Below are positions 12,344-59,296 of a stretch of DNA of 64,000 bases, piece by piece. Position 1 is the first letter of the stretch, and each line of letters starts with the position of its first letter. This stretch comes from an uncultured Bacilli bacterium (GTDB taxonomy: Bacteria > Bacillota_I > Bacilli_A > RF39 > UBA660): positions 66,148-130,147 of the forward strand of contig CAKPDM010000003.1 in NCBI GenBank assembly GCA_934148995.1, read 5' to 3'. The notes beneath the pieces are model-generated. The model made no database searches. It was given only the letters and a program-made list of their open reading frames with translations, and had not been told where the DNA came from. The translations under genes and the position numbers were made by a program.

Positions 12344-13273
12344 ATTGTAAATTTAGATAATGGTAGAGTTTTAAAGTTAAAAGAAAAACTCTTAAGAGAA
12401 CATAAGGTTATACCAGCTACCCAAGACTCTGTCTTTAAGATAGTGATGGCTTCTTGTCCTAATTATCTTTCTTTTCTAATTAGTGAGTTTACGGGTGTAT
12501 CAAAAGAAGATATTAAACGTAAATTAGCGATTAAGAATAATGAACTTAATCTAAGTAATGCTAAAGAAAAAAGAAAAATCTCTGATTTTATTGCTGGTAT
12601 TGATAAGTTATTAGTTAATATCGAAATGAATGGCAAATATTATGAATGGTTATTCATGCGAAATGATGCTTATCTAGGAAAGATTGAAGGAGAAAGTTTA
12701 AACTCTGGCAATGACTATAGTACACTTTACTCGTTTTTACAGATTAATCTAAATAATTTTACTTATTTTAAAGGTAATGATTCAGCATTAGAATTTGTTT
12801 ATACTGATAAAAAAAGTAAACAAATTGAAACGGAAAAAGTTAAAAAATATCATATCAGTCTTCCAAAATTAGCTAAGAAATATTATAATGGAGCTAGATT
12901 AAGTAAGCTTGAAAAAGCGTTACTTATACTAAAAATTGATAAGATTAGTGATCTAGAAAAATTAGGGAAAGGAGATAATGACTTGATGGAAGCAGTAGGA
13001 AGAATAAAAGAAGCTTCTCTTGATATTAATACGATTGGACTTTACGATGCTGATTTAGAGCGCGAAAGAATTGAAAATGGTATTAGAAGTATATCATTTA
13101 AAGCTGGAATTGAACGTGGACTTGAACAGGGACTTGAACGCGGACTTGAGCAAGGAAGTACAAAAGAAAGAATTTCTATAATTAGTGCAATGCTTAATAA
13201 TGGAATAAGTCAGGAAGAAGTTACTAAAATGACTGGTATACCAATAAAAGAAGTAAAAGCGATAAAACTTTAG
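12344..13273 (+). CDS. Rpn/YhgA-like PD-(D/E)XK nuclease-family protein (putative transposase-like), copy 1
   Basis: About 60 percent identical by eye to the paralog at 52353-53267. Homology (KVIPATQDSVFKIVMASCP) extends upstream of the tracked GTG 12443 to an ATT at 12344, which lies 7 nt after GGAGGTG. No canonical start occurs in that stretch. Motifs SDFIA...IEMN. C-terminal HTH-like tail ISIISAMLNNGISQEEVTKMTGIP. Confidence 0.6.
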   Translation: MVNLDNGRVLKLKEKLLREHKVIPATQDSVFKIVMASCPNYLSFLISEFTGVSKEDIKRKLAIKNNELNLSNAKEKRKISDFIAGIDKLLVNIEMNGKYYEWLFMRNDAYLGKIEGESLNSGNDYSTLYSFLQINLNNFTYFKGNDSALEFVYTDKKSKQIETEKVKKYHISLPKLAKKYYNGARLSKLEKALLILKIDKISDLEKLGKGDNDLMEAVGRIKEASLDINTIGLYDADLERERIENGIRSISFKAGIERGLEQGLERGLEQGSTKERISIISAMLNNGISQEEVTKMTGIPIKEVKAIKL

Positions 13274-16698: not shown

Positions 16699-16870
16699 AC
16701 ACTTTTCCTCCACTTATACCCTATAATTATAGCTAATTTTTTCAATACTTTCAACAAACCACCCTAAATAACAGTAAAATCTAGTGTAAAGTTTCATACA
16801 AAATATGAGCAAATAAGACAAATATCATTTATTTAATGATATAATCAAGATACTAGAGGAGGTGCCTTTA

Positions 16871-18679
16871 ATGAAAAGATGGAGTAAATTATCAATTTTC
16901 ATCTTAGTATTATTATTTATGACGCCTACTGTTTCTGCTAAAGAGTATATCGTTTTAAACACACCTAAAGCCTTTAAAGATAAACCAAGTGGTAGTAGAA
17001 TTACCTCTATTGGAGATGAAGGAGTCTTACCAACTCTTAGTAAAGTAGTAGTGCTTGATAAAAATAATAAAAGTGGATATGGTTGTAAATCTGCTTGGTA
17101 TAAAGTATCTTATCAAGATGTTATTGGTTATATTTGTTCAAGTGACCAAGTAATAAAGGAAGAAGTAGAAGTTGATACTGATGGCGACTTTGAAAAGGAA
17201 ATGTTAAGTAAAGGTTTCAATGAAAGCTATTTATCATCACTAAAAAGTCTTCATGAGAAACATCCAAACTGGATATTTAATGCCGTTAAGACTAATCTGG
17301 ATTATAATGATGCCATTACTAATGAAACGATTGGAGAAATATCATTAGTAAATGGAACAGATGAAACTTTAAGAAAGAAAGACGACTATGGAAACTATAT
17401 CGAGTCAGTTAAAGAAAAAGGCTGGTATCAAGCAAGTTCTAGTGCTGTCGGTTATTATATGGACCCTAGAAACTTCTTAACCGAAGAAGGAGTCTTTATG
17501 TTTGAAAACTTACAATATAATAAAGAAATTCAAACGAAAGATGCCCTAAAAAGTATTTTAAAAAACACTTTTATGGATAATGATGAATATGTAAATTACT
17601 TTATGAAAGCAGCTGATAAATCAGGAGCCAGTCCTACATATCTTGCTAGTCGTGTAAGACAAGAAAAAGGTGCAAATGGTTCAACTGGTGTTGATGGTGC
17701 TAAGTTTACTTTTGCTAAAGATAATGAATGTGCTAATCGTTATCGTAATAATGATAACTGGACAATACTTAATAACTGTGGAAATAATCAAGAATATAGT
17801 GGCATTTATAACTTTTATAATATTGGTGCTTATGGAACTTACCAAAGTCCTGTTATTAGAGGCCTAATCTGGGCAAATGGAGGTTATGATGCTAGTGTTA
17901 CTAGTTATATGCGACCTTGGGATAGTAAAGAAAAAGCTATTATCGGTGGAGCCCTTTATATTGTTAATGGTTATATAAATGCTAATCAACATACGCTTTA
18001 CTTCCAAAAATTTAATGTTAGTCCTTCAGCTTTAAACTCCACTTATACGCATCAATATATGTCTAATATTAAAGCCCCAGCCAGCGAAGCCTTATCAATC
18101 TATAAAGGCTATAAGAGTAATGACTTATTAGATAAAACCTATGAATTTTTAATACCAGTTTATGAAAAGATGCCAGGAGTAAGTGAAAGTCCTAAGACTG
18201 ATGATGATAAACCAGTAACACCTCCAGAAGAAGTACCTGTAATTAAGATAGATGATGCTATCATTGCAAGTAGTTATCGCTTAAATAGTAATTACATTTC
18301 TGGAATAGAAGTAAATACCTCTAAGACTAATCTAGAAAATAAATTAAAAACAATCTATGAAGGCTTATCAGTTGTTAGTGTCAAAGATAAATATGGCAAC
18401 AATAAAAATGATGCCTTAGCAACAAATGATGTAATTACTATCTCTAACTCTAAAGATACAAAAGAATATACGGTCGTTATTTATGGTGATAATAATGGTG
18501 ATGGAACAACTAGTATCATTGACTTATTAAGAATTCAAAAGTATCTACTTGGTAATAACAACTTAACCGATGCTGAATTAATCGCTAGTGATTTAGATAA
18601 AGACGGTTTAATAACTGTAGTAGATTTATTAAGAATGCAAAAAAGTTTATTAGGATATAGTAAAATAGAACAGAAATGA
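16871..18679 (+). CDS. secreted SH3b / glucosaminidase-like peptidoglycan hydrolase with C-terminal dockerin module
   Basis: Signal peptide MKRWSKLSIFILVLLFMTPTVSA. SH3b-like WYKVSYQDVIGYICS. Central ASPTYLASRVRQEKG region. Two Ca-binding dockerin repeats: DNNGDGTTSIIDLLRIQKYLLG and DLDKDGLITVVDLLRMQKSLLG. Confidence 0.7.
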   Translation: MKRWSKLSIFILVLLFMTPTVSAKEYIVLNTPKAFKDKPSGSRITSIGDEGVLPTLSKVVVLDKNNKSGYGCKSAWYKVSYQDVIGYICSSDQVIKEEVEVDTDGDFEKEMLSKGFNESYLSSLKSLHEKHPNWIFNAVKTNLDYNDAITNETIGEISLVNGTDETLRKKDDYGNYIESVKEKGWYQASSSAVGYYMDPRNFLTEEGVFMFENLQYNKEIQTKDALKSILKNTFMDNDEYVNYFMKAADKSGASPTYLASRVRQEKGANGSTGVDGAKFTFAKDNECANRYRNNDNWTILNNCGNNQEYSGIYNFYNIGAYGTYQSPVIRGLIWANGGYDASVTSYMRPWDSKEKAIIGGALYIVNGYINANQHTLYFQKFNVSPSALNSTYTHQYMSNIKAPASEALSIYKGYKSNDLLDKTYEFLIPVYEKMPGVSESPKTDDDKPVTPPEEVPVIKIDDAIIASSYRLNSNYISGIEVNTSKTNLENKLKTIYEGLSVVSVKDKYGNNKNDALATNDVITISNSKDTKEYTVVIYGDNNGDGTTSIIDLLRIQKYLLGNNNLTDAELIASDLDKDGLITVVDLLRMQKSLLGYSKIEQK

Positions 18680-18689
18680 GATGATTTAA

Positions 18690-20021
18690 ATGTCTAAAAA
18701 GAAAATATTTGTCTTCCTTCTTTCCTTTTTCTTTTTTTGTGGGGTAGAAGAAGTAAGTGCAGCGACGATTAGTGTAGCTGGAACAACAAGTAGTGGTGTT
18801 GTTGGGGGAACAGTTACTGTCAATGTCACTGTTAATGAACCATCAGGACTAGGAGCTTGGGAGTTCAATGTCGCTTATGATAGTGATATTTTAACTCTTA
18901 CTAGTGGACAAACTCACGTTGTAGATTATGTTCAAAGTCCAGGACAAACAAGAAAAACTTATTCTTATAAGTTCAATATTAAAAAAGAAGGAAATGCTAG
19001 TGTTTCTATCGCTTCTTCAAATTTCGTTTCTTATGATGAACAAACAAGAACAGCTCCTAAGGACTCTACTACTATCAACTGTACTAAAAGAGAAACTGTC
19101 ATCGCTAATTATAGTAGCAATAATAACTTAGCTTCCCTTGGTGTAAAAGATTACCAGATATCTCCTACCTTCAATAAAAATACTCTTAACTATACCCTAG
19201 AAGTAGAACATGATGTCGAAAAAATAACTATCGAAGGAAGCAAAGAAGACTCTAAAAGTAGAGTTACTGGTCTTGGTGAAAAAGAAGTTCACGAAGGAGC
19301 TAACGCTTTCGATATTACTGTTACCGCCGAAAATGGTGCTACTAAAACTTATCACTTAACCGTAACAGTCAAAGAACTAGACCCTATAACCGTTAAAGTC
19401 GATAAAAAAGAAATGACTCTTATTCAACAAGAAAAAGAACTAGAAGGAAAAGTACCAGCTCACTTTGAAAAAACAACAGTAAAAGTAAATGATAAAGATG
19501 TTCTAGCTTATGAAAATAAGACCTTAAAATTAAAAATAGTTGCTCTAAAAGATGATAAAGGTAATATCGATTTCTATGAATATCAAGATAATAACTATAA
19601 ACTATATAATCAAATAAGTAGTGGAAATGTCACAATTCATATCTTAACAGATGAAAAACAAATACCTAAAAACTATAAATTTTACAAATTAAAAATAGAT
19701 AATAAAGAATATATTGGATATAAACTAAATAAGAAAGATGACTTTTTCCTAATTTATGGAGAAAATGTTGAAACTGGTAGAAAAAGTTTATATAATTATG
19801 ATGAGGTAGAAAAAACTGTTCAAAGATATAATAAGGTAGATACTAAAAATAGTGTTAATAACAGTAACCAAGAAAAGTATATTATCTTAGGTTTATTAGG
19901 ACTAGTTTTATTACTTCTTATCATCTTACTAGGACTATTAAATAACAATAAATCTAGTAAGAAGAGACCAAAAATCAAAAAGAGAATTGGAGAAAGAAAC
20001 AATGGACAGAAAGAATTCTAA
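18690..20021 (+). CDS. membrane-anchored cohesin-like / cadherin-like beta-sandwich protein
   Basis: Signal peptide. Cohesin-like GGTVTVNVTVNEPSGLGAWEFNVAYDSDILTL. Cadherin-like-sandwich motif NNNLASLGVKDYQISPTFNKNTLNYTLEV...TYHLTVT. C-terminal TM helix plus a basic tail. Confidence 0.6.
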   Translation: MSKKKIFVFLLSFFFFCGVEEVSAATISVAGTTSSGVVGGTVTVNVTVNEPSGLGAWEFNVAYDSDILTLTSGQTHVVDYVQSPGQTRKTYSYKFNIKKEGNASVSIASSNFVSYDEQTRTAPKDSTTINCTKRETVIANYSSNNNLASLGVKDYQISPTFNKNTLNYTLEVEHDVEKITIEGSKEDSKSRVTGLGEKEVHEGANAFDITVTAENGATKTYHLTVTVKELDPITVKVDKKEMTLIQQEKELEGKVPAHFEKTTVKVNDKDVLAYENKTLKLKIVALKDDKGNIDFYEYQDNNYKLYNQISSGNVTIHILTDEKQIPKNYKFYKLKIDNKEYIGYKLNKKDDFFLIYGENVETGRKSLYNYDEVEKTVQRYNKVDTKNSVNNSNQEKYIILGLLGLVLLLLIILLGLLNNNKSSKKRPKIKKRIGERNNGQKEF

Positions 20022-28910: not shown

Positions 28911-30536
28911 GTGATTAAATTGGCAGAATTTAAAAGAAGAAAAAAAAGACAAGATTTTAAAGAAAAAAATTATAAAAATAATACTAATGACTACCACGAA
29001 ATATCTTTAACAAAAATGGGTAAAAGACAGTTAGTGCTCACTGTATTATCTATTTTTGGAGTAACAATGTTGTCAATAGGCAGTACCTTCGCTATATTTA
29101 CAGTATCATCTAAATCTGCCGAATACAATGTAATTAAAACAGGTACTTTAAACATCAACTTTGCAGCAGATGCATCCTCAACCGTAGGACTTAATAATGC
29201 GCTACCAATGTCTGATACAGATGGCTTTGCACAGTCAGGAACTACTTTCACCATAACAAACACCGGAAGTCTACCTGCAAATTATTCGGTATCTTTAAAA
29301 GATGATACCGATATGGTAACCCAAGATAATTGTAGTGCTAAGCAATTAGCAAAAACAAATATTAAATACAGCTTAGACGGTTCAACCGCCAGTCTTTTAT
29401 CAACAGCAATTGATAGTGAATTAATAAGTGGAACATTAAATTCAGGAGAAAGTAAAACATTTACCTTAAAACTATGGATAAAAGAAGATGCTACTAACGA
29501 AGTATTAAATAAACATTATCACGGAAAAATAGTAGTAGATGCTATACAAGAAGGTGCACCAGTTCTTGCTACTACAGCATTAATTAAAAAAGCAAATCCA
29601 GAAAGCTTAGATTATAATAGTGCAACAGATGAACAAAAGAATCAAATGTGGACATTTACTCATGAAGCAACAACTCAATTAGGAGCAACTACAGATTATC
29701 GTTATATCGGAGCAAATCCTAATAACTACGTCAAATTTAATGATGAATTATGGCGAATAATCGGTGTCTTCGATGTCGATGATGGAACAGGGAAAATAGA
29801 GAAAAGATTAAAGATTATAAGAAATGAATCAATAGGTAATTATTCGTGGGACAATAAGGATACATCAACAGGAGCAGAAACTGATTATGGAAAAAATAAT
29901 TGGCCTGACGCTAGACTTAATTATTTACTAAATGAAGACCATGATAGTGAAACCTATGGTGGAAGTTTATATTGGAATCGAAAAAGTGGAACTTGCTATA
30001 TAGGTCAAAATAATGCAACTACTTCCTGTGATTTCACGTCTGCTGGTTTAAGTGATAGTGCTAAAGAAATGATCGGGGATGCCAAGTGGTACTTGGGAAG
30101 TACTGCTAGTTATACTAGCTCATCAAACGGATTAGCATCACATTTTTATGGATATGAGAGAGGAACAACAGTATATAGTGGAAGAAGTACATCATGGATA
30201 GGAAAAGTAGGATTAATGTATCCAAGTGATTATGGATATGCAACAAGTGGAAATAGTTCCACATCAAGAGCAACATGCTTAGCCAAAGCGATGTATAGCT
30301 GGGATGGAGCAAGTGCATGTTATGAAAATGATTGGTTGTCTAAATCCAGTTATATGTGGTCCCTTTCGCCTTACTCGTCTAATGGTGGCTACGTGTTCGG
30401 TGTCCGCAGTAGTGGGTATGTCTACCGCGATGATGCGAACTATGCTTACGGCGTGTGGCCAGTCGTTTATCTAAAGTCAACAATTAAGGTGACCACAGGA
30501 ACAGGAAGTAGTGATTCACCATTCATTCTAGAATGA
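28911..30536 (+). CDS. secreted protein: TasA/camelysin-like N-terminal domain plus C-terminal lectin-like domain with an A-depleted 3' tract
   Basis: Signal anchor ending SIGSTFAIFT, then KTGTLNINF and NALPMSD...TFTITNTGSLPANY (compare TasA GGGTWAAFND...SGTLDL). C-terminus WSLSP...GVWPVVYLKS. The start is uncertain: GTG 28911, TTG 28920 or ATG 29016. Confidence 0.65.
   Translation: MIKLAEFKRRKKRQDFKEKNYKNNTNDYHEISLTKMGKRQLVLTVLSIFGVTMLSIGSTFAIFTVSSKSAEYNVIKTGTLNINFAADASSTVGLNNALPMSDTDGFAQSGTTFTITNTGSLPANYSVSLKDDTDMVTQDNCSAKQLAKTNIKYSLDGSTASLLSTAIDSELISGTLNSGESKTFTLKLWIKEDATNEVLNKHYHGKIVVDAIQEGAPVLATTALIKKANPESLDYNSATDEQKNQMWTFTHEATTQLGATTDYRYIGANPNNYVKFNDELWRIIGVFDVDDGTGKIEKRLKIIRNESIGNYSWDNKDTSTGAETDYGKNNWPDARLNYLLNEDHDSETYGGSLYWNRKSGTCYIGQNNATTSCDFTSAGLSDSAKEMIGDAKWYLGSTASYTSSSNGLASHFYGYERGTTVYSGRSTSWIGKVGLMYPSDYGYATSGNSSTSRATCLAKAMYSWDGASACYENDWLSKSSYMWSLSPYSSNGGYVFGVRSSGYVYRDDANYAYGVWPVVYLKSTIKVTTGTGSSDSPFILE
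30357..30472 (+). other. adenine-depleted, GC-enriched tract (candidate DGR-type variable region)
   Basis: By hand count, about 16 A in about 116 nt. Codons such as tcg, gtg, ggc, cgc and gcg are rare elsewhere in the window. The tract encodes WSLSPYSSNGGYVFGVRSSGYVYRDDANYAYGVWPVVY. Confidence 0.45.
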
Positions 30537-52352: not shown

Positions 52353-53267
52353 TTATAATAAACCTATCTTTTTAACTTTCTCAAATGGAACTCCAGTCAT
52401 TTCTACTATGTTTTTTGGTTTTATACCATTATTAAGCATTGTAGTAATGATAGAAGCCTGTCCTTCTTCACGTCCAAGTTCAATACCTTCTTCACGTCCG
52501 ATTTTTTCTCGGTAAGCTAATTTTGCTTCTTCTTTCCATTTTCTATCTTTCTCTGCATCATAAAGACCGATAGTATTGATATCGAAAGTTGCTTCTTTAA
52601 TTTTTTCTACTGCTTCCATTAAATCTTCATCTCCTTTGCTAATTTCTTCTAAATCACTGATTTTATCAAGCTTAAGGATAAGTAAAGCTTTTTCAAGTTT
52701 ACTTAACTTATCCCCATTATAGTATTTCTTTTCTAACTTGGGAAGACTGATGTGATATTTTTTAAGATTTTCCGTTTCAATTTCTAATGTATCTTTATCT
52801 GTATAAACGAATTCAAGGATTGGTTTATCACTTTTAAAGTGCGTAAAATTATTGAAATTCACTTGTAAAAATCTTTGCATGTTACTAAAACTTTCAGAAA
52901 CATTCAAACTTTCTCCTTCAAGTTTTCCAAGATAAGCTTGATTTCTGATTAGTAGACCATCATAGTATTCACTATTCATCTCAAAGTTTATTAAAGACTT
53001 ATCAATCTTAGCGATAAAGTCAGATATCTTCTTTCGCTCTTTAGCATTACTAAGTGGTAACTCATTGTTTTGAATAATAATATTCTTAAGCAAATCATCT
53101 TTATCAATATTAGTAAATTCACTAATTAGAAAAGTAACATAAGCAGGACAAGAAGACATAACAATCTTGAACATAGTATCAGTAGTAGCAGGGATAACCT
53201 TACCATCTTTGATAAGTTGTTCTTTTATTTTGTTAAGCTTTTTAGAAATGTCAATCTCTTTCGTCAT
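52353..53267 (-). CDS. Rpn/YhgA-like PD-(D/E)XK nuclease-family protein, copy 2
   Basis: Paralog of 12344-13273: IPATTDTMFKIVMSSCP, SDFIAKIDKSLINFEMN, DINTIGLYDAEKD. ATG 53267 (MTKEIDIS) follows GGGGGTGAT. Confidence 0.65.
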   Translation of the reverse strand: MTKEIDISKKLNKIKEQLIKDGKVIPATTDTMFKIVMSSCPAYVTFLISEFTNIDKDDLLKNIIIQNNELPLSNAKERKKISDFIAKIDKSLINFEMNSEYYDGLLIRNQAYLGKLEGESLNVSESFSNMQRFLQVNFNNFTHFKSDKPILEFVYTDKDTLEIETENLKKYHISLPKLEKKYYNGDKLSKLEKALLILKLDKISDLEEISKGDEDLMEAVEKIKEATFDINTIGLYDAEKDRKWKEEAKLAYREKIGREEGIELGREEGQASIITTMLNNGIKPKNIVEMTGVPFEKVKKIGLL

Positions 53268-53460
53268 GGTGTCATCACCCCCTTTCGCCATTAATCTAAC
53301 ATAAGAAAGATTAGAACGCAAAAAGGGAAAAATGACAAATTCACCCCCTAAAAACTCCTGAATTTGCTAAATTGCTCGGTGAATTTGTTAAATTCCGCAC
53401 TATAACATGCCTGAAAATGACAAATTGACCTTAAAAAGCATAAATTTAATTTTTTTAAAA
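53268..53460 (-). repeat. conserved leader of the Rpn-like element (copy 2)
   Basis: See 12157-12343. Multiple GCAAATTC/GAATTTGC-type motifs. Confidence 0.6.
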
Positions 53461-53531: not shown

Positions 53532-53900
53532 ATGGCTAATATTAAAATAGAGAGAATTAATCATGCCGTTCAAGAAGAACTAATGAGTATTTTATTCTTA
53601 GAAGCAAAAGATGAATTATTAAAAAAAGTTACTATTACTGATTGTGAAGTATCAAGTGATTTAGGTTATTGTAAAGTATATGTAACAGTGATGAATGATG
53701 AGGAAAAAGGAGCAATACTAAAAGCATTAAATGATGCTAAGAGTTTCTTAAGAGGGGAGTTAAGTAAAAGAATAGATATTAGACATACTCCAGAATTAAC
53801 GTTTATATATGATGATTCTATCGCTTATGGATCTAGAATTGATGAAGTATTAGAAAAAATAGAGGATGAGAAGAATGAATTATCAGGTTCTAATAAATAG
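53532..53900 (+). CDS. rbfA: ribosome-binding factor A
   Basis: RINHAVQEELMSIL...VTITDCEVSSDLGYCKVYV...RHTPELTFIYD. ATG 53532 follows AAGGGAGGAG. Confidence 0.9.
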   Translation: MANIKIERINHAVQEELMSILFLEAKDELLKKVTITDCEVSSDLGYCKVYVTVMNDEEKGAILKALNDAKSFLRGELSKRIDIRHTPELTFIYDDSIAYGSRIDEVLEKIEDEKNELSGSNK

Positions 53901-55248
53901 AGAAAATGAGTATGAAAAGCAAGACTTTCAAAATGCTAAGTATGCAACTTATACTAATAGTTTAGGAGAAGATATCATCTTAGAAAAAAGGACATTACAA
54001 GCATTTTTTAATCTACAAAGTGAATTTATGGCAGATATTAAACTAGATATAAATAGTGGGTATCGAACAATAGAAGAACAAGAAAAAATTTATAATGAAG
54101 ATAAAATTTATGCGGCAGAACCAGGTTTTAGTGAACATCATTCTGGACTTTGCTTTGATTTGTTTTTAATTGATAATGGGGTAGTAGTAGATGATAATGA
54201 AACACTAAAAAGTGCTAAGTATCAAGAATTTTTCAAAAAAGTAGAGAAGAAAGCTAGTAAATATGGACTTATTTTAAGATATCCATTAGGTAGAGAAGTA
54301 ATAACTACTTATCCATATGAGCCTTGGCATTATCGTTATGTTACTATTTCTACTGCAAAGATTATTTATGATAAGAAAATAACTTTAGAAGAGTATCATA
54401 GGTTATTCCGTCGTAGTGGTATCTTATTACTTAATAAGAAAAAAGGTATGACTTCAAGAGATGTAGTAAATATTGTTAGTAAAAGATTTGATACTAAGAA
54501 AGTAGGACATAATGGAACACTTGATCCATTAGCAACTGGTTTATTAGTAGTAACGATTAATAATGCTACTAAAATTAATGAGTTTTTAACTGCATATGAA
54601 AAAGAGTATGAAGCGAAAGTACTTATCGGTACTAGAACAGATACAGGAGATGTTACTGGTAAGGTCTTAGCAAAAGAAGAAGTAACTTTATCAAAAGAGC
54701 AAATAGTAAAGATGATAAATGAATTTCCAAAAGAGTATTTGCAAGAAGTACCAATCTATTCAGCTGTTAAGATTAATGGAAAGAAACTATATCAATATGC
54801 TAGAAATGGTGAAGAAGTAGAACTTCCTAAAAGACAAGTTGAAATAAAGAGTCTAGAATTACTAGCAACAACCCCAACAACATTTTCTTTTAGAACAACC
54901 GTATCTAAAGGTTGCTATATAAGAAGTGTAATAGAAGATATGGGTAAAATATTAGGAGTTCCTCTTACTATGTCTGCTCTTAAAAGAACAAAACAAGGTG
55001 ATTTTTCTTTAAAAGATGCTTACAACTTAGCAGGAGTAGATGAGAATGTAGAACTTATTACTATTACAGATGCTTTACAAGTGAAAACTGAAGAGTTAGA
55101 TAAAACCTTAGCAAAAAAGATTAAATCTGGTAATAAAATAAGAATAGATGAAAATATGGTTTTATTCTTAGAAGATGGTAAGGAACTAGCTTTATATTTA
55201 AAAACTGGTGAATATGCTAAACCTTTAAAAATGTTTAGTAATAAATAG
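53866..55248 (+). CDS. truB: fusion protein: M15B (VanY-like) D,D-peptidase domain plus tRNA pseudouridine-55 synthase TruB
   Basis: N-terminal 180 aa carry SGYRT, SEHHSGLCFDL and EPWHYRYV. From about 54410 comes canonical TruB: GILLLNKKKGMTSRDVV...GHNGTLDPLATGLLVV. It is a single uninterrupted frame. Confidence 0.8.
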   Translation: MRRMNYQVLINRENEYEKQDFQNAKYATYTNSLGEDIILEKRTLQAFFNLQSEFMADIKLDINSGYRTIEEQEKIYNEDKIYAAEPGFSEHHSGLCFDLFLIDNGVVVDDNETLKSAKYQEFFKKVEKKASKYGLILRYPLGREVITTYPYEPWHYRYVTISTAKIIYDKKITLEEYHRLFRRSGILLLNKKKGMTSRDVVNIVSKRFDTKKVGHNGTLDPLATGLLVVTINNATKINEFLTAYEKEYEAKVLIGTRTDTGDVTGKVLAKEEVTLSKEQIVKMINEFPKEYLQEVPIYSAVKINGKKLYQYARNGEEVELPKRQVEIKSLELLATTPTTFSFRTTVSKGCYIRSVIEDMGKILGVPLTMSALKRTKQGDFSLKDAYNLAGVDENVELITITDALQVKTEELDKTLAKKIKSGNKIRIDENMVLFLEDGKELALYLKTGEYAKPLKMFSNK

Positions 55249-55411: not shown

Positions 55412-55488
55412 AATGATAGATTAATATCAAAAAGGTATAAATCTATCTTTTTTGTTAAATACTAAAATAGAAAGTGTAGGTTTTGATC

Positions 55489-57357
55489 ATGAAGAATAAA
55501 AAGAAAGATTTCATTTTAATATTAATAGCTTTTGTCTTACTAATAGCAATAGTAGGTATCAGTTATGCAGCATTTAACTATGTGGGAACTGGTCAAAAAT
55601 TAAATACAATCACAACCGGTACAATAACTATGGAATATGTAGAAAGTACCAATGTTATTTCTATGAATAATGCCCTTCCAACAACAGATGCAACAGGAAA
55701 GAAAAGGCTAAATACTGGAGAATATTTTGATTTTACAGTTAAATCATCAATTGCAGGAAATACCGATATCAACTATGAAATAGCAGCCAAAGAAGAAAGT
55801 GGAAATACTTTTAGCGGAAGTAATATCAGATATTATTTGACAACAGTAGATGCCAATGGAAAAGAAACAGAGGTAATGGCACCTCGTACATATTATGAAG
55901 AACCATCAGGTAATGGATATACAGGCCGCCCTGCTGATATGATGAGTCTATATACTGGAAACTTAAATCAACAAGGAACAACAGAAGTAAAATATAGATT
56001 AAGATTATGGGTAGATGAAAGTTACAATCCTCAAAATGATAATGGAGGACTAATTTACAAAGTAAAAGTAAATGTTTATGGTCAAACAAGTGACACTGTA
56101 GCTCAAGCAGAAGATACATATTGTAAAGATAATGGCTTTACAAAACTATCAGATTGTATGCTTGTTATGAACAATCACGAAGCATCAGCAGATGCAGCAG
56201 GAGCAGCAATCGTAGCAAAAGGAACACCAAACTTTGCAAAAATTGCACCCAATAGTAGTGAAACAGATGGATTATATGCAGCAGACGATGATGATGGAAC
56301 CAGTTATTATTATCGAGGAGCAGTAAGAAACAACTATGTATCATTCGCTGGATTTATGTGGAGAATAATCCGTCGAAATGGTGATGGAAGTATTCGTTTG
56401 ATCTATTCAGGAAAAACAACATCAGATACAGGAACAGCAGTAACAATTGGAAACTCACAATATAATGAAAAATATTGGGATCCAACATATGTAGGATATA
56501 AATATAACGAGAAGTTCTCACTACATGAAAGTAATGGAACAACAGGATATAATTGGTTTACCAATACACAAAAATATAACTATGGAACAGGTTATACATT
56601 TGATGAATCAACGAAGAAATTCACATTAACAGGAGAGATCAAGCAACTAACCTGGAAAGATAATCATGACGAAATAGTAAAAAATAATTTATATAGTTGC
56701 TTAAATACCTCATGTAACGTAGTTTATAAAGTAACAGGATATCAGAATGAAACAACAATGACGGTACAACCAATCTCATATAGTAGTGATAGTTATGCTG
56801 ATACTTTAACTAATACAACAAACTCAACAATAAAGACAACATTAGATACATGGTATAAGAATAACATGACAGCATATACATCATACTTAGCAGACACAAC
56901 ATTCTGTAATGATAGAAGTATAAATTGGGGATCAGGATATTTAACAACACCAACTACCACATATGGTGCATATGGACGTTTAGCAGAAAGAAGAACACCA
57001 AGCTTAAAATGTGCACAAGCTAATGATAAATTTACACTTACAAATGAGAGTGCAAAATTAGATTATCCAGTGTCATTAATAACAGCAGATGAGGCATCAA
57101 TGGCCGGAGGAGTTTATAATATAGCAAATAGTAATTATTATCTATATAATGGCCAATACACCTGGACGCTGTCTCCGTCTAGCTTCCGTTCTAACAACTC
57201 TATTGCGTACGTTTGGAGCGTGCGTCCTTCGGGCAGTTTGTACGCTTGGTATGACGTTACTGGTCCCATCGGGGCCCGTCCAGTTATCAACCTAAAGGCA
57301 GATACACAGATAACTAAGGGAGATGGAACCTCCTTAAATCCATATGTTGTTAAATAA
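55489..57357 (+). CDS. secreted TasA-like N-domain / lectin-like C-domain protein, tandem paralog A
   Basis: IVGISYAAFN...TTGTITMEY...NALPTTD. Central YYYRGAVRNNYVSFAGFMWRIIRRNGDGSIRLIYSG. C-terminus WTLSPS...GARPVINLKAD. Confidence 0.7.
   Translation: MKNKKKDFILILIAFVLLIAIVGISYAAFNYVGTGQKLNTITTGTITMEYVESTNVISMNNALPTTDATGKKRLNTGEYFDFTVKSSIAGNTDINYEIAAKEESGNTFSGSNIRYYLTTVDANGKETEVMAPRTYYEEPSGNGYTGRPADMMSLYTGNLNQQGTTEVKYRLRLWVDESYNPQNDNGGLIYKVKVNVYGQTSDTVAQAEDTYCKDNGFTKLSDCMLVMNNHEASADAAGAAIVAKGTPNFAKIAPNSSETDGLYAADDDDGTSYYYRGAVRNNYVSFAGFMWRIIRRNGDGSIRLIYSGKTTSDTGTAVTIGNSQYNEKYWDPTYVGYKYNEKFSLHESNGTTGYNWFTNTQKYNYGTGYTFDESTKKFTLTGEIKQLTWKDNHDEIVKNNLYSCLNTSCNVVYKVTGYQNETTMTVQPISYSSDSYADTLTNTTNSTIKTTLDTWYKNNMTAYTSYLADTTFCNDRSINWGSGYLTTPTTTYGAYGRLAERRTPSLKCAQANDKFTLTNESAKLDYPVSLITADEASMAGGVYNIANSNYYLYNGQYTWTLSPSSFRSNNSIAYVWSVRPSGSLYAWYDVTGPIGARPVINLKADTQITKGDGTSLNPYVVK
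57163..57285 (+). other. adenine-depleted hypervariable tract (candidate DGR variable region) of paralog A
   Basis: By hand count, about 16 A in about 123 nt. Invariant codons avoid A: tgg acg ctg tct ccg tct, gcg tac gtt tgg, cct tcg ggc, ggg gcc cgt. Confidence 0.5.
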
Positions 57358-57377
57358 TAGAAAGGAGGAAACATTTT

Positions 57378-59246
57378 ATGAAAAAACGAAGAAAAGAATT
57401 TTTAATGATCTTGTTTGTTTTAGTTTTATTAATTACTATAGTAGGTATCAGTTATGCAGCATTTAACTACGCGGGAACTGGTCAAAAGTTAAATACAATC
57501 ACAACTGGTACAATAACTATGGAATATGTAGAAAGTACAAACACAATTGCAATGACAGATGCATTGCCCACAACAATAGCAACCGGAAAAACAAGGTTGA
57601 AAGCTGGTGAATATTTTGATTTTACAGTAAAATCATCAATCACCGGTAATACAGATATCAACTATGAAATAGCAGCCAAAGAAGAGAATGGAAATACTTT
57701 TAGCGGAAGTAATATCAGATATTATTTGACAACAGTAGATGAAAACGGAAAAGAAACAGAAGTAATGGCACCTCGTACATATTATGAAGAAACATCAGGT
57801 AATGGATATACAGGTCGTCCTGCTGATATGATGAGTCTATATACAGGAAACTTAAATCAACAAGGAACAACAGAAGTAAAATATAGATTAAGATTATGGG
57901 TCGATGAAAGTTACAATCCTCAAAATGATAATGGAGGACTAATTTACAAAGTAAAAGTAAATGTTTACGGTCAAACAAGTGACACTGTAGCTCAAGCAGA
58001 AGATACTTATTGTAAAGATAATGGTTTTACAAAACTATCAGATTGTATGCTTGTTATGAATAATCATGAAGCATCAGCAGATCTAGCAGGAGCAGCAATC
58101 GTAGCCAAAGGAACACCAAACTTTGCACAAATTGCACCAAATAGTGATGAGACTGATGGCTTATATGCAGCAGACGATGATGATGGAACAAGCTATTATT
58201 ATCGAGGAGCAGTAAGAAATAATTATGTGTCATTCGCTGGATTTATGTGGAGAATTATCCGTCGAAATGGTGATGGAAGTATTCGTTTGATCTATTCAGG
58301 AAAAACAACATCAGATACAGGAACAGCAGTAACAATTGGAAATTCACAGTATAACGGAAAGTATTGGGATCCAACATATGTAGGATATAAATATAACGAG
58401 AAGTTCTCACTACATGAAAGCAATGGAACAACAGGATATAACTGGTTTACCAATACTCAAAAATATAATTTTGGAACAGGCTACAGTTTTGACGAATCAA
58501 CAAAGAAATTCACTTTAACAGGAGATATCAAGCAACTAACCTGGAAAGATAATCATGACGAAATAGTAAAAAATAATTTATATAGTTGCTTAAATACATC
58601 ATGTAACGTAGTTTATAAAGTAACAGGATATCAGAATGAAACAACAATGACGGTACAACCAATCTCATATAGTAGTGATAGTTATGCTGATACTTTAACT
58701 AATACAACAAACTCAACAATAAAGACAACATTAGATACATGGTATAAGAATAACATGACAGCATATACATCATACTTAGCAGACACAACATTCTGTAATG
58801 ATAGAAGTATAAATTGGGGATCAGGATATTTAACAACACCAACTACCACATATGGGGCATATGGACGTTTAGCAGAAAGAAGAACACCAAGCTTAAAATG
58901 TGCACAAGCCAATGATAAATTTACACTTACAAACGAAAGTGCAAAATTAGATTACCCAGTGTCATTAATAACAGCAGATGAAGCATCAATGGCTGGAGGC
59001 GTTTATGGAATAGCAAATAGTAATTATTATCTATATAATGGACAATACACCTGGACGCTGTCTCCGTCTTACTTCTACTCTTACTACTCTTTTGCGTACG
59101 TTTGGCGCGTCGGACCTTCGGGCAGCTTGGACGTTAGTATTGTCTCAAATTCCTTCGGGGCCCGTCCAGTTATCAACCTAAAGGCTGATACACAGATAAC
59201 TAAGGGAGATGGAACAGTTCTAAATCCATATGTTGTTAAGTCTTGA
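57378..59246 (+). CDS. secreted TasA-like N-domain / lectin-like C-domain protein, tandem paralog B
   Basis: Near-identical to paralog A, except the first roughly 100 aa (scattered changes) and the 3' tract. GAAAGGAGG SD. Confidence 0.75.
   Translation: MKKRRKEFLMILFVLVLLITIVGISYAAFNYAGTGQKLNTITTGTITMEYVESTNTIAMTDALPTTIATGKTRLKAGEYFDFTVKSSITGNTDINYEIAAKEENGNTFSGSNIRYYLTTVDENGKETEVMAPRTYYEETSGNGYTGRPADMMSLYTGNLNQQGTTEVKYRLRLWVDESYNPQNDNGGLIYKVKVNVYGQTSDTVAQAEDTYCKDNGFTKLSDCMLVMNNHEASADLAGAAIVAKGTPNFAQIAPNSDETDGLYAADDDDGTSYYYRGAVRNNYVSFAGFMWRIIRRNGDGSIRLIYSGKTTSDTGTAVTIGNSQYNGKYWDPTYVGYKYNEKFSLHESNGTTGYNWFTNTQKYNFGTGYSFDESTKKFTLTGDIKQLTWKDNHDEIVKNNLYSCLNTSCNVVYKVTGYQNETTMTVQPISYSSDSYADTLTNTTNSTIKTTLDTWYKNNMTAYTSYLADTTFCNDRSINWGSGYLTTPTTTYGAYGRLAERRTPSLKCAQANDKFTLTNESAKLDYPVSLITADEASMAGGVYGIANSNYYLYNGQYTWTLSPSYFYSYYSFAYVWRVGPSGSLDVSIVSNSFGARPVINLKADTQITKGDGTVLNPYVVKS
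59052..59171 (+). other. adenine-depleted hypervariable tract (candidate DGR variable region) of paralog B
   Basis: Same scaffold as 57163-57285, with about half of the intervening codons different and one codon fewer. Confidence 0.5.
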
Positions 59247-59266
59247 AAAAAATAAATATTAGAATA

Positions 59267-59296
59267 GAAAACGACAAATTTCTCGTTTTCTTTTTT
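59267..59296 (+). terminator. rho-independent terminator
   Basis: GAAAACGA-caaatttc-TCGTTTTC followed by TTTTTT. Confidence 0.75.

Follow-up and report, generated by a model that had tools for sequence, protein, structure and literature searches.

Divergent 3' tracts in a tandem pair of envelope-protein genes of an uncultured gut Bacilli bacterium, probably written by a chromosomal diversity-generating retroelement

Why two adjacent and largely identical genes should diverge sharply over a short tract near their 3' ends is the question raised by a locus on contig CAKPDM010000003.1 of the uncultured Bacilli assembly GCA_934148995.1, analysed here as a window of 64,000 nucleotides (contig positions 66,148 to 130,147; coordinates below count from the first letter of this window unless another contig is named). 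The two tandem genes, A and B, encode proteins that differ by 20 mismatches in residues 1-100 and by just 11 in residues 100-560. Past the motif WTLSPS, tract A reads SFRSNNSIAYVWSVRPSGSLYAWYDVTGPI and tract B reads YFYSYYSFAYVWRVGPSGSLDVSIVSNSF, and about half of the codons are unlike until both genes return to the common GGGGCCCGTCCAGTTATCAACC, at positions 57271 and 59157, respectively. Tract B is one codon shorter than tract A, a TGG codon being missing, and the density of A/B differences is 26 in 114 aligned nt within the tract versus 38 in 900 nt upstream. The tracts also stand apart in composition: adenine makes up 16 of the 123 nt in 57163-57285 (13% A, 55% G+C) and 15 of the 120 nt in 59052-59171, both tracts thus having 12-13% A and 53-55% G+C, compared with 42% A and 33% G+C in gene A outside the tract and 29% G+C in the whole window. 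The 18-mer and the 22-mer flanking the tract each occur exactly twice in the window against an expectation of 0.00-0.01, which rules out chance as the source of the repeated flanks. An earlier reading made from the sequence only had described the near-identical tandem genes, the sharp adenine-poor tract and adenine counts of about 15-16, and counts of open reading frames (ORFs) and composition bear out these descriptive statements in full.

The sequence-only reading had proposed that the tracts are the variable regions (VRs) of a diversity-generating retroelement (DGR) whose reverse transcriptase (RT) and template lie beyond the window. In a DGR, a template repeat (TR) is transcribed, an Avd-assisted RT misincorporates opposite the adenines of the template, and the cDNA replaces the VR up to a G+C-rich 3' boundary. 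The proposal is supported by the cassettes found in related genomes, by VR/TR pairs that differ at adenines only, and by a bias towards template-adenine sites in the window itself; tracts A and B were very probably written by such an element.

The cassettes came to light through the conserved scaffold of the tracts. A scan of a genome collection placed the 18-mer that precedes the tract at 3, 4 and 7 sites in three related metagenome-assembled genomes (MAGs), each named "Bacilli bacterium" and each distinct from the species of the window (about 80-89% nucleotide identity); nhmmer added two further scaffold copies in one of them, the Hadza MAG. Every copy in these MAGs forms the 3' end of a paralogous gene and combines the same invariant scaffold with NNC/NNT variable codons. 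The 18-mer lies partly outside the TR, and so the scan returned VRs only; the TR was found by nhmmer in the fetched locus. There, on contig L010 of the Hadza MAG, a search with a tract profile detected an extra copy that belongs to no family member and lies some 270 nt downstream from a target gene, a TR of 117 nt with AAC or AAT at the variable codons, in a cassette with genes for a MutS_I protein, an Avd and an RT (Table 1). The order target, TR, small MutS-domain protein (MSL), Avd, RT recurs without exception in the 27 further TR loci whose flanking sequence suffices, which were fetched via RT homologs and by scanning metagenomes with a TR pattern. The second of the three MAGs, SUG1206, appears to carry the cassette too, as an RT that is 95% identical (P0511) probably belongs to it. 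Judged by its sequence, the system of these relatives is a cellular DGR, because no phage RT of the collection reaches 33% identity to its RT and the cassette adjoins housekeeping genes (rsmD). The small MutS-domain-I protein stands between TR and Avd in every cassette, at 58-100% identity.

In several of these relatives the differences between VR and TR are confined almost completely to template adenines. Compared with the adjacent TR, the VR of L023 has mismatches at 15 of 30 adenines and at 0 of 87 other bases, and that of L026 at 18 of 34 adenines and 0 of 83 other bases. Four loci from four different metagenomes carry four different VRs alongside one identical TR (L040, L041 and L043) or a TR one base off (L042), and their VR/TR mismatches number 17, 14 and 15 at adenine sites with none elsewhere for the first three, and 11 at adenine sites plus 1 elsewhere for L042. 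L040 and L042 differ at 21 of 117 VR positions and at only 9 of 1465 positions downstream; confinement of strain-level variation to template-adenine sites is seen in the L020-type lineage. Column entropy, taken over 17 unique VRs that have the window-type scaffold, is 1.44 bits for TR-A sites and 0.35 bits for all others (p 2.6e-12). The family consensus, WTLSPSxFxSxxSxAxVWxVxPSGSLxxWxxVxxSFGARPVINL, has template AAY codons at each x; because the template has AAC or AAT at the chosen codons, only the residues so specified are randomised and no stop codons arise, and because the invariant scaffold is adenine-poor, it is G+C-rich within an A+T-rich genome. The tracts of the window carry the same bias: A and B differ at 14-16 of about 25 TR-A sites versus 10-12 of about 88 other sites (p ~1e-5), and against the TRs of other genomes the two tracts overall show 13-19 adenine-site and 8-20 non-adenine mismatches, a bias that is significant and not exclusive.

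The explanation that we favour, and regard as probable on the strength of these sequence comparisons, is that A and B are members of a multi-copy, envelope-anchored family in which the last 35 or so codons of each gene would be written by a chromosomal DGR: the TR transcript would be copied by the Avd-assisted RT with errors at template adenines, and the resulting cDNA would replace the VR as far as the G+C-rich boundary. The mechanism is a known one and no new mechanism is called for; the locus points to a new member of this kind, a cellular DGR of the MSL-Avd-RT type in uncultured gut Bacilli, with a multi-copy target family that lacks annotation and is unusually large.

The limits of the exchanged segment can be read from the alignment of VR A, spanning CGCTGTCTCCGTCT to GGGGCCCGTCCAG, with the TRs of L010, L033, L037, L044 and others. 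In the relatives, the homology between TR and VR extends through ...CCAG in every case, with unrelated sequence beyond it. The element GGGGCCCGTCCAG is common to the TRs and to both VRs of the window, divergence starts immediately 3' of it, and it may act as the site of initiation of mutagenic homing (IMH). At this same boundary begins an inverted repeat (AGTTATC / GATAACT, loop of 20 nt), which may correspond to the hairpin that in studied DGRs is found downstream of VRs; it overlaps conserved coding sequence, and by eye some paralogs are without it. One-codon deletions at the same VR place as that of tract B (near 59130) recur in P0130, P0132, P0141, P0147, P0149, P0151 and P0153 and cluster near the conserved W after SGxLxx. 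Indels are not expected from DGR copying.

Several observations weigh against this account where the tracts of the window themselves are concerned. Tract A differs from the nearest TRs at 13-15 adenine sites and at 8-11 other sites, tract B gives similar figures, with 6-14 non-A mismatches to the TRs in its first 75 nt, and no TR among those found accounts for either tract by adenine changes alone. In the lineage closest to the window (L010, L033), the TR-adjacent VR has 15-16 non-A mismatches. In the Hadza MAG all nine VRs are imperfect, the seven in register with the 18-mer having 2-16 non-A mismatches. A and B differ at four or more third codon positions within the tract, a caveat of the sequence-only reading that proves real, as does its caveat about the one-codon length difference. 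The closest family members have identical VR peptides although their backbones differ by 1-19 residues, and pairs with 10 or fewer backbone differences have VR peptides at most one residue apart. Within the 64-kb window nhmmer found no TR and tblastn found no RT, Avd or MutS-like gene, just as that reading had cautioned, and AlphaFold2 models of the proteins (predicted local distance difference test, pLDDT, 43.9 and 56.6, with the C-terminal part below 50) do not show the fold of the C-terminal module. Alternatively, A and B may be relics, written by a DGR in the past and, after loss of the cassette or a change of template, altered by ordinary mutation, indels and paralog recombination only, a reading that we consider possible, if on the doubtful side. 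In its favour are the 8-12 non-adenine mismatches to each TR found together with the third-position differences and the codon deletion in B, the identical VR peptides on diverging backbones, the presence of one VR on two backbones (P0125, P0143) and the continuation of contig L058 into another paralog, and a window without a cassette. The non-A differences often lie at sites where TR alleles themselves differ (GAG/AAT/AGT, GTG/GTC, TCA/TCG, CTG/TTG), a pattern that on sequence grounds suggests template turnover, each VR preserving the scaffold of whichever template allele wrote it last; once sites with A in any known TR allele are allowed, though, just 7 A-versus-B differences are left over. 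Against the relic reading stand also the cassette of the Hadza MAG and the one inferred for SUG1206, and the strain differences of a third gene of the window, described below, which fall only at codon positions 1-2 and suggest DGR activity in the species. Identical VR peptides on drifting backbones imply that a VR of the window type is rewritten rarely in this lineage, and tracts A and B do look rarely rewritten. We infer that template alleles of an earlier time, or different ones, wrote them and that rewriting is now rare or has ceased; that both are under diversification at present seems unlikely. A strain-level comparison of A-type VRs with L048 and L057, which are 95% identical and sit at another locus, is too diverged for a clean contrast.

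Two further explanations would dispense with a DGR for these tracts. The first is a hypervariable loop shaped by positive selection and gene conversion between paralogs, possibly from a G+C-richer donor; many paralogs could serve as donors and some VRs are common to different backbones, but all paralogs share the G+C-rich scaffold, so that a G+C-richer donor, which the sequence-only reading had named as a condition that would refute its proposal, is unnecessary and rejected. Moreover, variation tracks template adenines and not codon degeneracy, and in the relatives a non-coding copy that has A at precisely those positions that vary adjoins an RT, leaving an origin without any retroelement very improbable. 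The other is that the tandem pair or its divergent ends are a chimera assembled from a repeated family in a metagenome. Contigs L049 and L050 do end inside gene B, and L058, from the same sample, links the 3' part of A and the first 500 nt of B to another paralog and another downstream context. Yet an ENA assembly (ERZ27287414) and the contigs of Logan run ERR7747615, which are independent, match the window base for base across tract B and the spoIIGA junction, tract A is reproduced by L058, tandem pairs are present in other MAGs (L011, L015, L048), and the tracts themselves are independent of how the genes are joined; an assembly artefact is hardly credible. The other contigs with the exact tracts of the window (L049, L050 and L058) are identical or near-identical to it and offer no population contrast, and a public contig of 138,928 nt encodes a protein, P0593, that matches protein A in full. 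Exact look-ups of gene A had no match, and SpoIIGA brought up contigs identical to the window and no others.

If the tracts were DGR-written, as we favour, the writing machinery would lie outside the window. The metagenome scan with the TR pattern gave 18 loci, none of the window's species; the nearest TR-bearing contig was L033, with a target 91% identical, and two scans of viral contigs for the template found nothing. Of the genes that flank the cassette in relatives, rsmD, a ylbF-like gene, Fic, rhomboid, Zip and UvrD are not in the window; LytR is present with no cassette beside it, an observation of little weight since the position of the cassette varies between lineages. On balance we lean towards a genome that carries such a cassette elsewhere and uses it in trans.

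The third gene, a distant paralog, adds a second tract, noted by the sequence-only reading near 30357 as lying on a different scaffold. This tract is real, is likewise G+C-rich and adenine-poor (56% G+C, 13% A), and has hypervariable columns at the family level. Compared with another strain of the same species, the region is 97.3% identical over 4.6 kb with zero differences in 29011-30010, and 30372-30448 has about 21 substitutions, all at codon positions 1-2 of NNC/NNT codons. This pattern resembles a strain-level DGR signature on a different scaffold and suggests that a DGR is active in the species. The tract is probably the VR of a second template, of which no copy was found in the sequences searched. 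The window would then hold two targets that are probably rarely rewritten, and a third target of a different template. Nearby, 30074-30128 has 15 strain differences, mostly at third codon positions, in a flanking 1.1 kb that is otherwise identical, and looks like a short recombination patch.

The proteins that carry these tracts belong to a family without annotation. Protein A begins with a hydrophobic anchor or signal and a beta-rich N-domain, continues through a long middle part without annotation, and ends in a C-terminal module resembling DUF6273. Proteins A and B have no Pfam match even at E 10, and likewise no direct match in NCBIfam. Clustered at 90% identity, the homologs that reach E 1e-20 make up more than 3000 clusters; these are almost all singletons, and a Pfam domain is present in none. 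The C-terminal module of 100 aa has 7751 representatives at 50% clustering, in many architectures and with up to 11 copies per protein. Giant proteins of 4905 aa (P0361) and 3528 aa (P0362) carry the module up to 11 times. The sequence-only reading had placed the tract at the end of a C-type-lectin-fold or DUF1566-like domain. Part of this stands: 22 of 50 sampled homologs of the C-terminal 100 aa match DUF6273 (best E 2.6e-8), and one representative, P0367, passes the gathering cut-off of 23.5 bits with a score of 32.4 for the same residues, which suggests a link of the module to DUF6273 at the level of sequence. DUF6273 is a described DGR target domain with a predicted C-lectin fold (PMC10743442, PMC11792537). 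DUF1566, in turn, was matched neither by the window proteins nor by the sampled homologs, and the fold models are too poor to settle the rest; two PDB fold searches brought no match for the C-terminal domain, nor did the family profile match any PDB sequence.

A further suggestion, that the N-domain is TasA-like and potentially fibre-forming, does not survive. No match to TasA, camelysin (Peptidase_M73) or a SipW-type signal was found in Pfam or NCBIfam at E up to 10 or among PDB sequences, and a fold search with the N-domain (pLDDT 65-83) returned nothing but generic beta-sandwich matches, all with E above 1e-3 and none of them TasA. The sole resemblance to TasA, seen by reading the sequence, is a short motif, AAFN...GT[IL]. 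The N-domain as a TasA relative is rejected for want of a profile, PDB-sequence or fold match, and nothing was found in support of the idea, built upon it, of a new kind of diversified surface display.

Features of this kind are familiar from other DGRs: MutS-like accessory genes, Avd, and remote and multiple targets have all been documented, with seven non-adjacent targets in Treponema as the reported maximum (PMC5758913). A close parallel is the TvpA DGR of Treponema denticola, which is also chromosomal and non-phage, with one cassette-adjacent and several remote paralogous targets and a C-terminal VR in a surface protein (PMC5758913). Unlike TvpA, the targets described here have no sequence match to solved structures and are linked to DUF6273, a MutS-like gene accompanies Avd, and many copies carry non-adenine mismatches; against the seven non-adjacent targets of Treponema, there are up to 9 VR copies in one related MAG. 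The combination of Avd, MSL and RT is shared with Legionella pneumophila and other MSL DGRs (Wu et al. 2018; PMC5758913), from which the present system differs in host lineage, in target, in gene order (target-TR-MSL-Avd-RT here) and in its many trans targets. With the DUF6273 targets of gut phages, such as tentaclins and those of a Faecalibacterium prophage, it appears to have in common a VR at the C-terminal end of a DUF6273-type module, predicted to be C-lectin-like (PMC10743442, PMC11792537); those, however, are phage proteins diversified in cis, whereas the genes here are set among housekeeping genes, the RT of the relatives is, as noted, less than 33% identical to every phage RT of the collection, and the window proteins have no Pfam match. 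Adenine-specific transfer from TR to VR, a G+C-rich boundary and AAC-type codons recall the Mtd/Brt/Avd system of Bordetella phage BPP-1, and Bordetella phage RTs are among the tblastn matches of the relatives' RT; BPP-1, by contrast, diversifies a phage tail fibre, a single target in cis, without a MutS-like gene, and sequence similarity to it is very low.

The significance of the locus lies in offering a mechanism for a very large unannotated human-gut Bacilli family without a Pfam family, together with a probable function, variable ligand binding on the cell surface. Large metagenome surveys that require a VR beside the RT miss remote targets by design (PMC8144416), and genes such as these escape that criterion. 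Active and frozen copies side by side in a single protein family could help explain why a DGR retains or gives up a target, and which function its MutS-like accessory protein has. It is tempting to go further and propose, tentatively and at somewhat less than even confidence, that this uncultured spore-forming gut Bacilli lineage maintains a very large DGR-diversified envelope repertoire served in trans by one chromosomal MSL-Avd-RT cassette, in which older VRs have been frozen by successive template alleles. The basis for so large a repertoire is that at least 5 family members are pointed to in this genome, that a related MAG has up to nine VR copies, and that there are two unrelated VR scaffolds, which imply two templates. 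If true, this repertoire would exceed every trans-acting DGR target set described so far, and would be a natural system for the study of target choice and retirement.

Table 1. Features of the tandem target genes, their variable regions and the third gene (window positions), and of the cassette on contig L010 of the Hadza MAG (positions on L010)
Feature	Position	Strand	Remarks
Target gene A, 622-624 aa	55489-57357	+	ORF; alternative TTG start at 55483
Target gene B, 622-624 aa	57378-59246	+	ORF; 20 nt past the end of gene A
Variable region A	57167-57283	+	117 nt, collinear with the template repeats of relatives; variable part 57181-57270
Variable region B	59056-59169	+	114 nt; conserved TGG absent
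G+C-rich 3' end of VR/TR homology, GGGGCCCGTCCAG	57271-57283; second copy 59157-59169	+	IMH-like position
Inverted repeat AGTTATC / GATAACT, 20-nt loop	57282-57315; second copy 59168-59201	+	begins at the homology boundary
Terminator-like hairpin 3' of gene B	59266-59291	+	present after B only, not after A
Distant paralog (third gene), 24% identity	28911-30536	+	probable own variable region, about 30357-30460; scaffold unlike that of A and B
L010 MutS_I protein, 157 aa	3042-3515	-	Pfam E 3.5e-8
L010 Avd, 118 aa			NCBIfam DivGenRetAVD E 1.9e-10; bAvd E 1.1e-8
L010 reverse transcriptase, 375 aa			RVT_1 E 4.8e-20; IGNMTSQ and YMDD motifs

Genes A and B are probably co-transcribed. The window otherwise holds ordinary chromosomal genes, among them pnp, rbfA, truB, spoIIGA and sigE, and the pair is set among truB and spoIIGA/sigE. 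One ORF at 53866-55248 joins a VanY D-Ala-D-Ala carboxypeptidase domain to TruB pseudouridine synthase domains. Genes of the PD-(D/E)XK transposase family (PDDEXK_2) lie at 12443-13273 (+) and 52353-53321 (-); one of them precedes the tandem pair by about 2 kb, and MAG SUG1206 has a related copy (L009, 89% nucleotide identity).

Two contigs of public assemblies show further peculiarities. On L058 (ERZ27287414 k141_578038), positions 1-2892 correspond to window positions 56368-59254, comprising the 3' part of A and the first 500 nt of B, with 4 single-nucleotide differences, one of which makes a stop; the contig continues with a different paralog (P0143) and then an arsR-like gene, a P-type ATPase gene, mgsA and mutS, and represents a second locus unless it is an assembly chimera. 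On L051, a run of N (a scaffold gap, about 715-741) falls within the VR, consistent with heterogeneity within the sample having broken the assembly. No Rfam families were found in the window. At 16862-20021, a dockerin-containing gene adjoins a cohesin/cadherin-like gene, an arrangement that suggests a cellulosome-like surface assembly.

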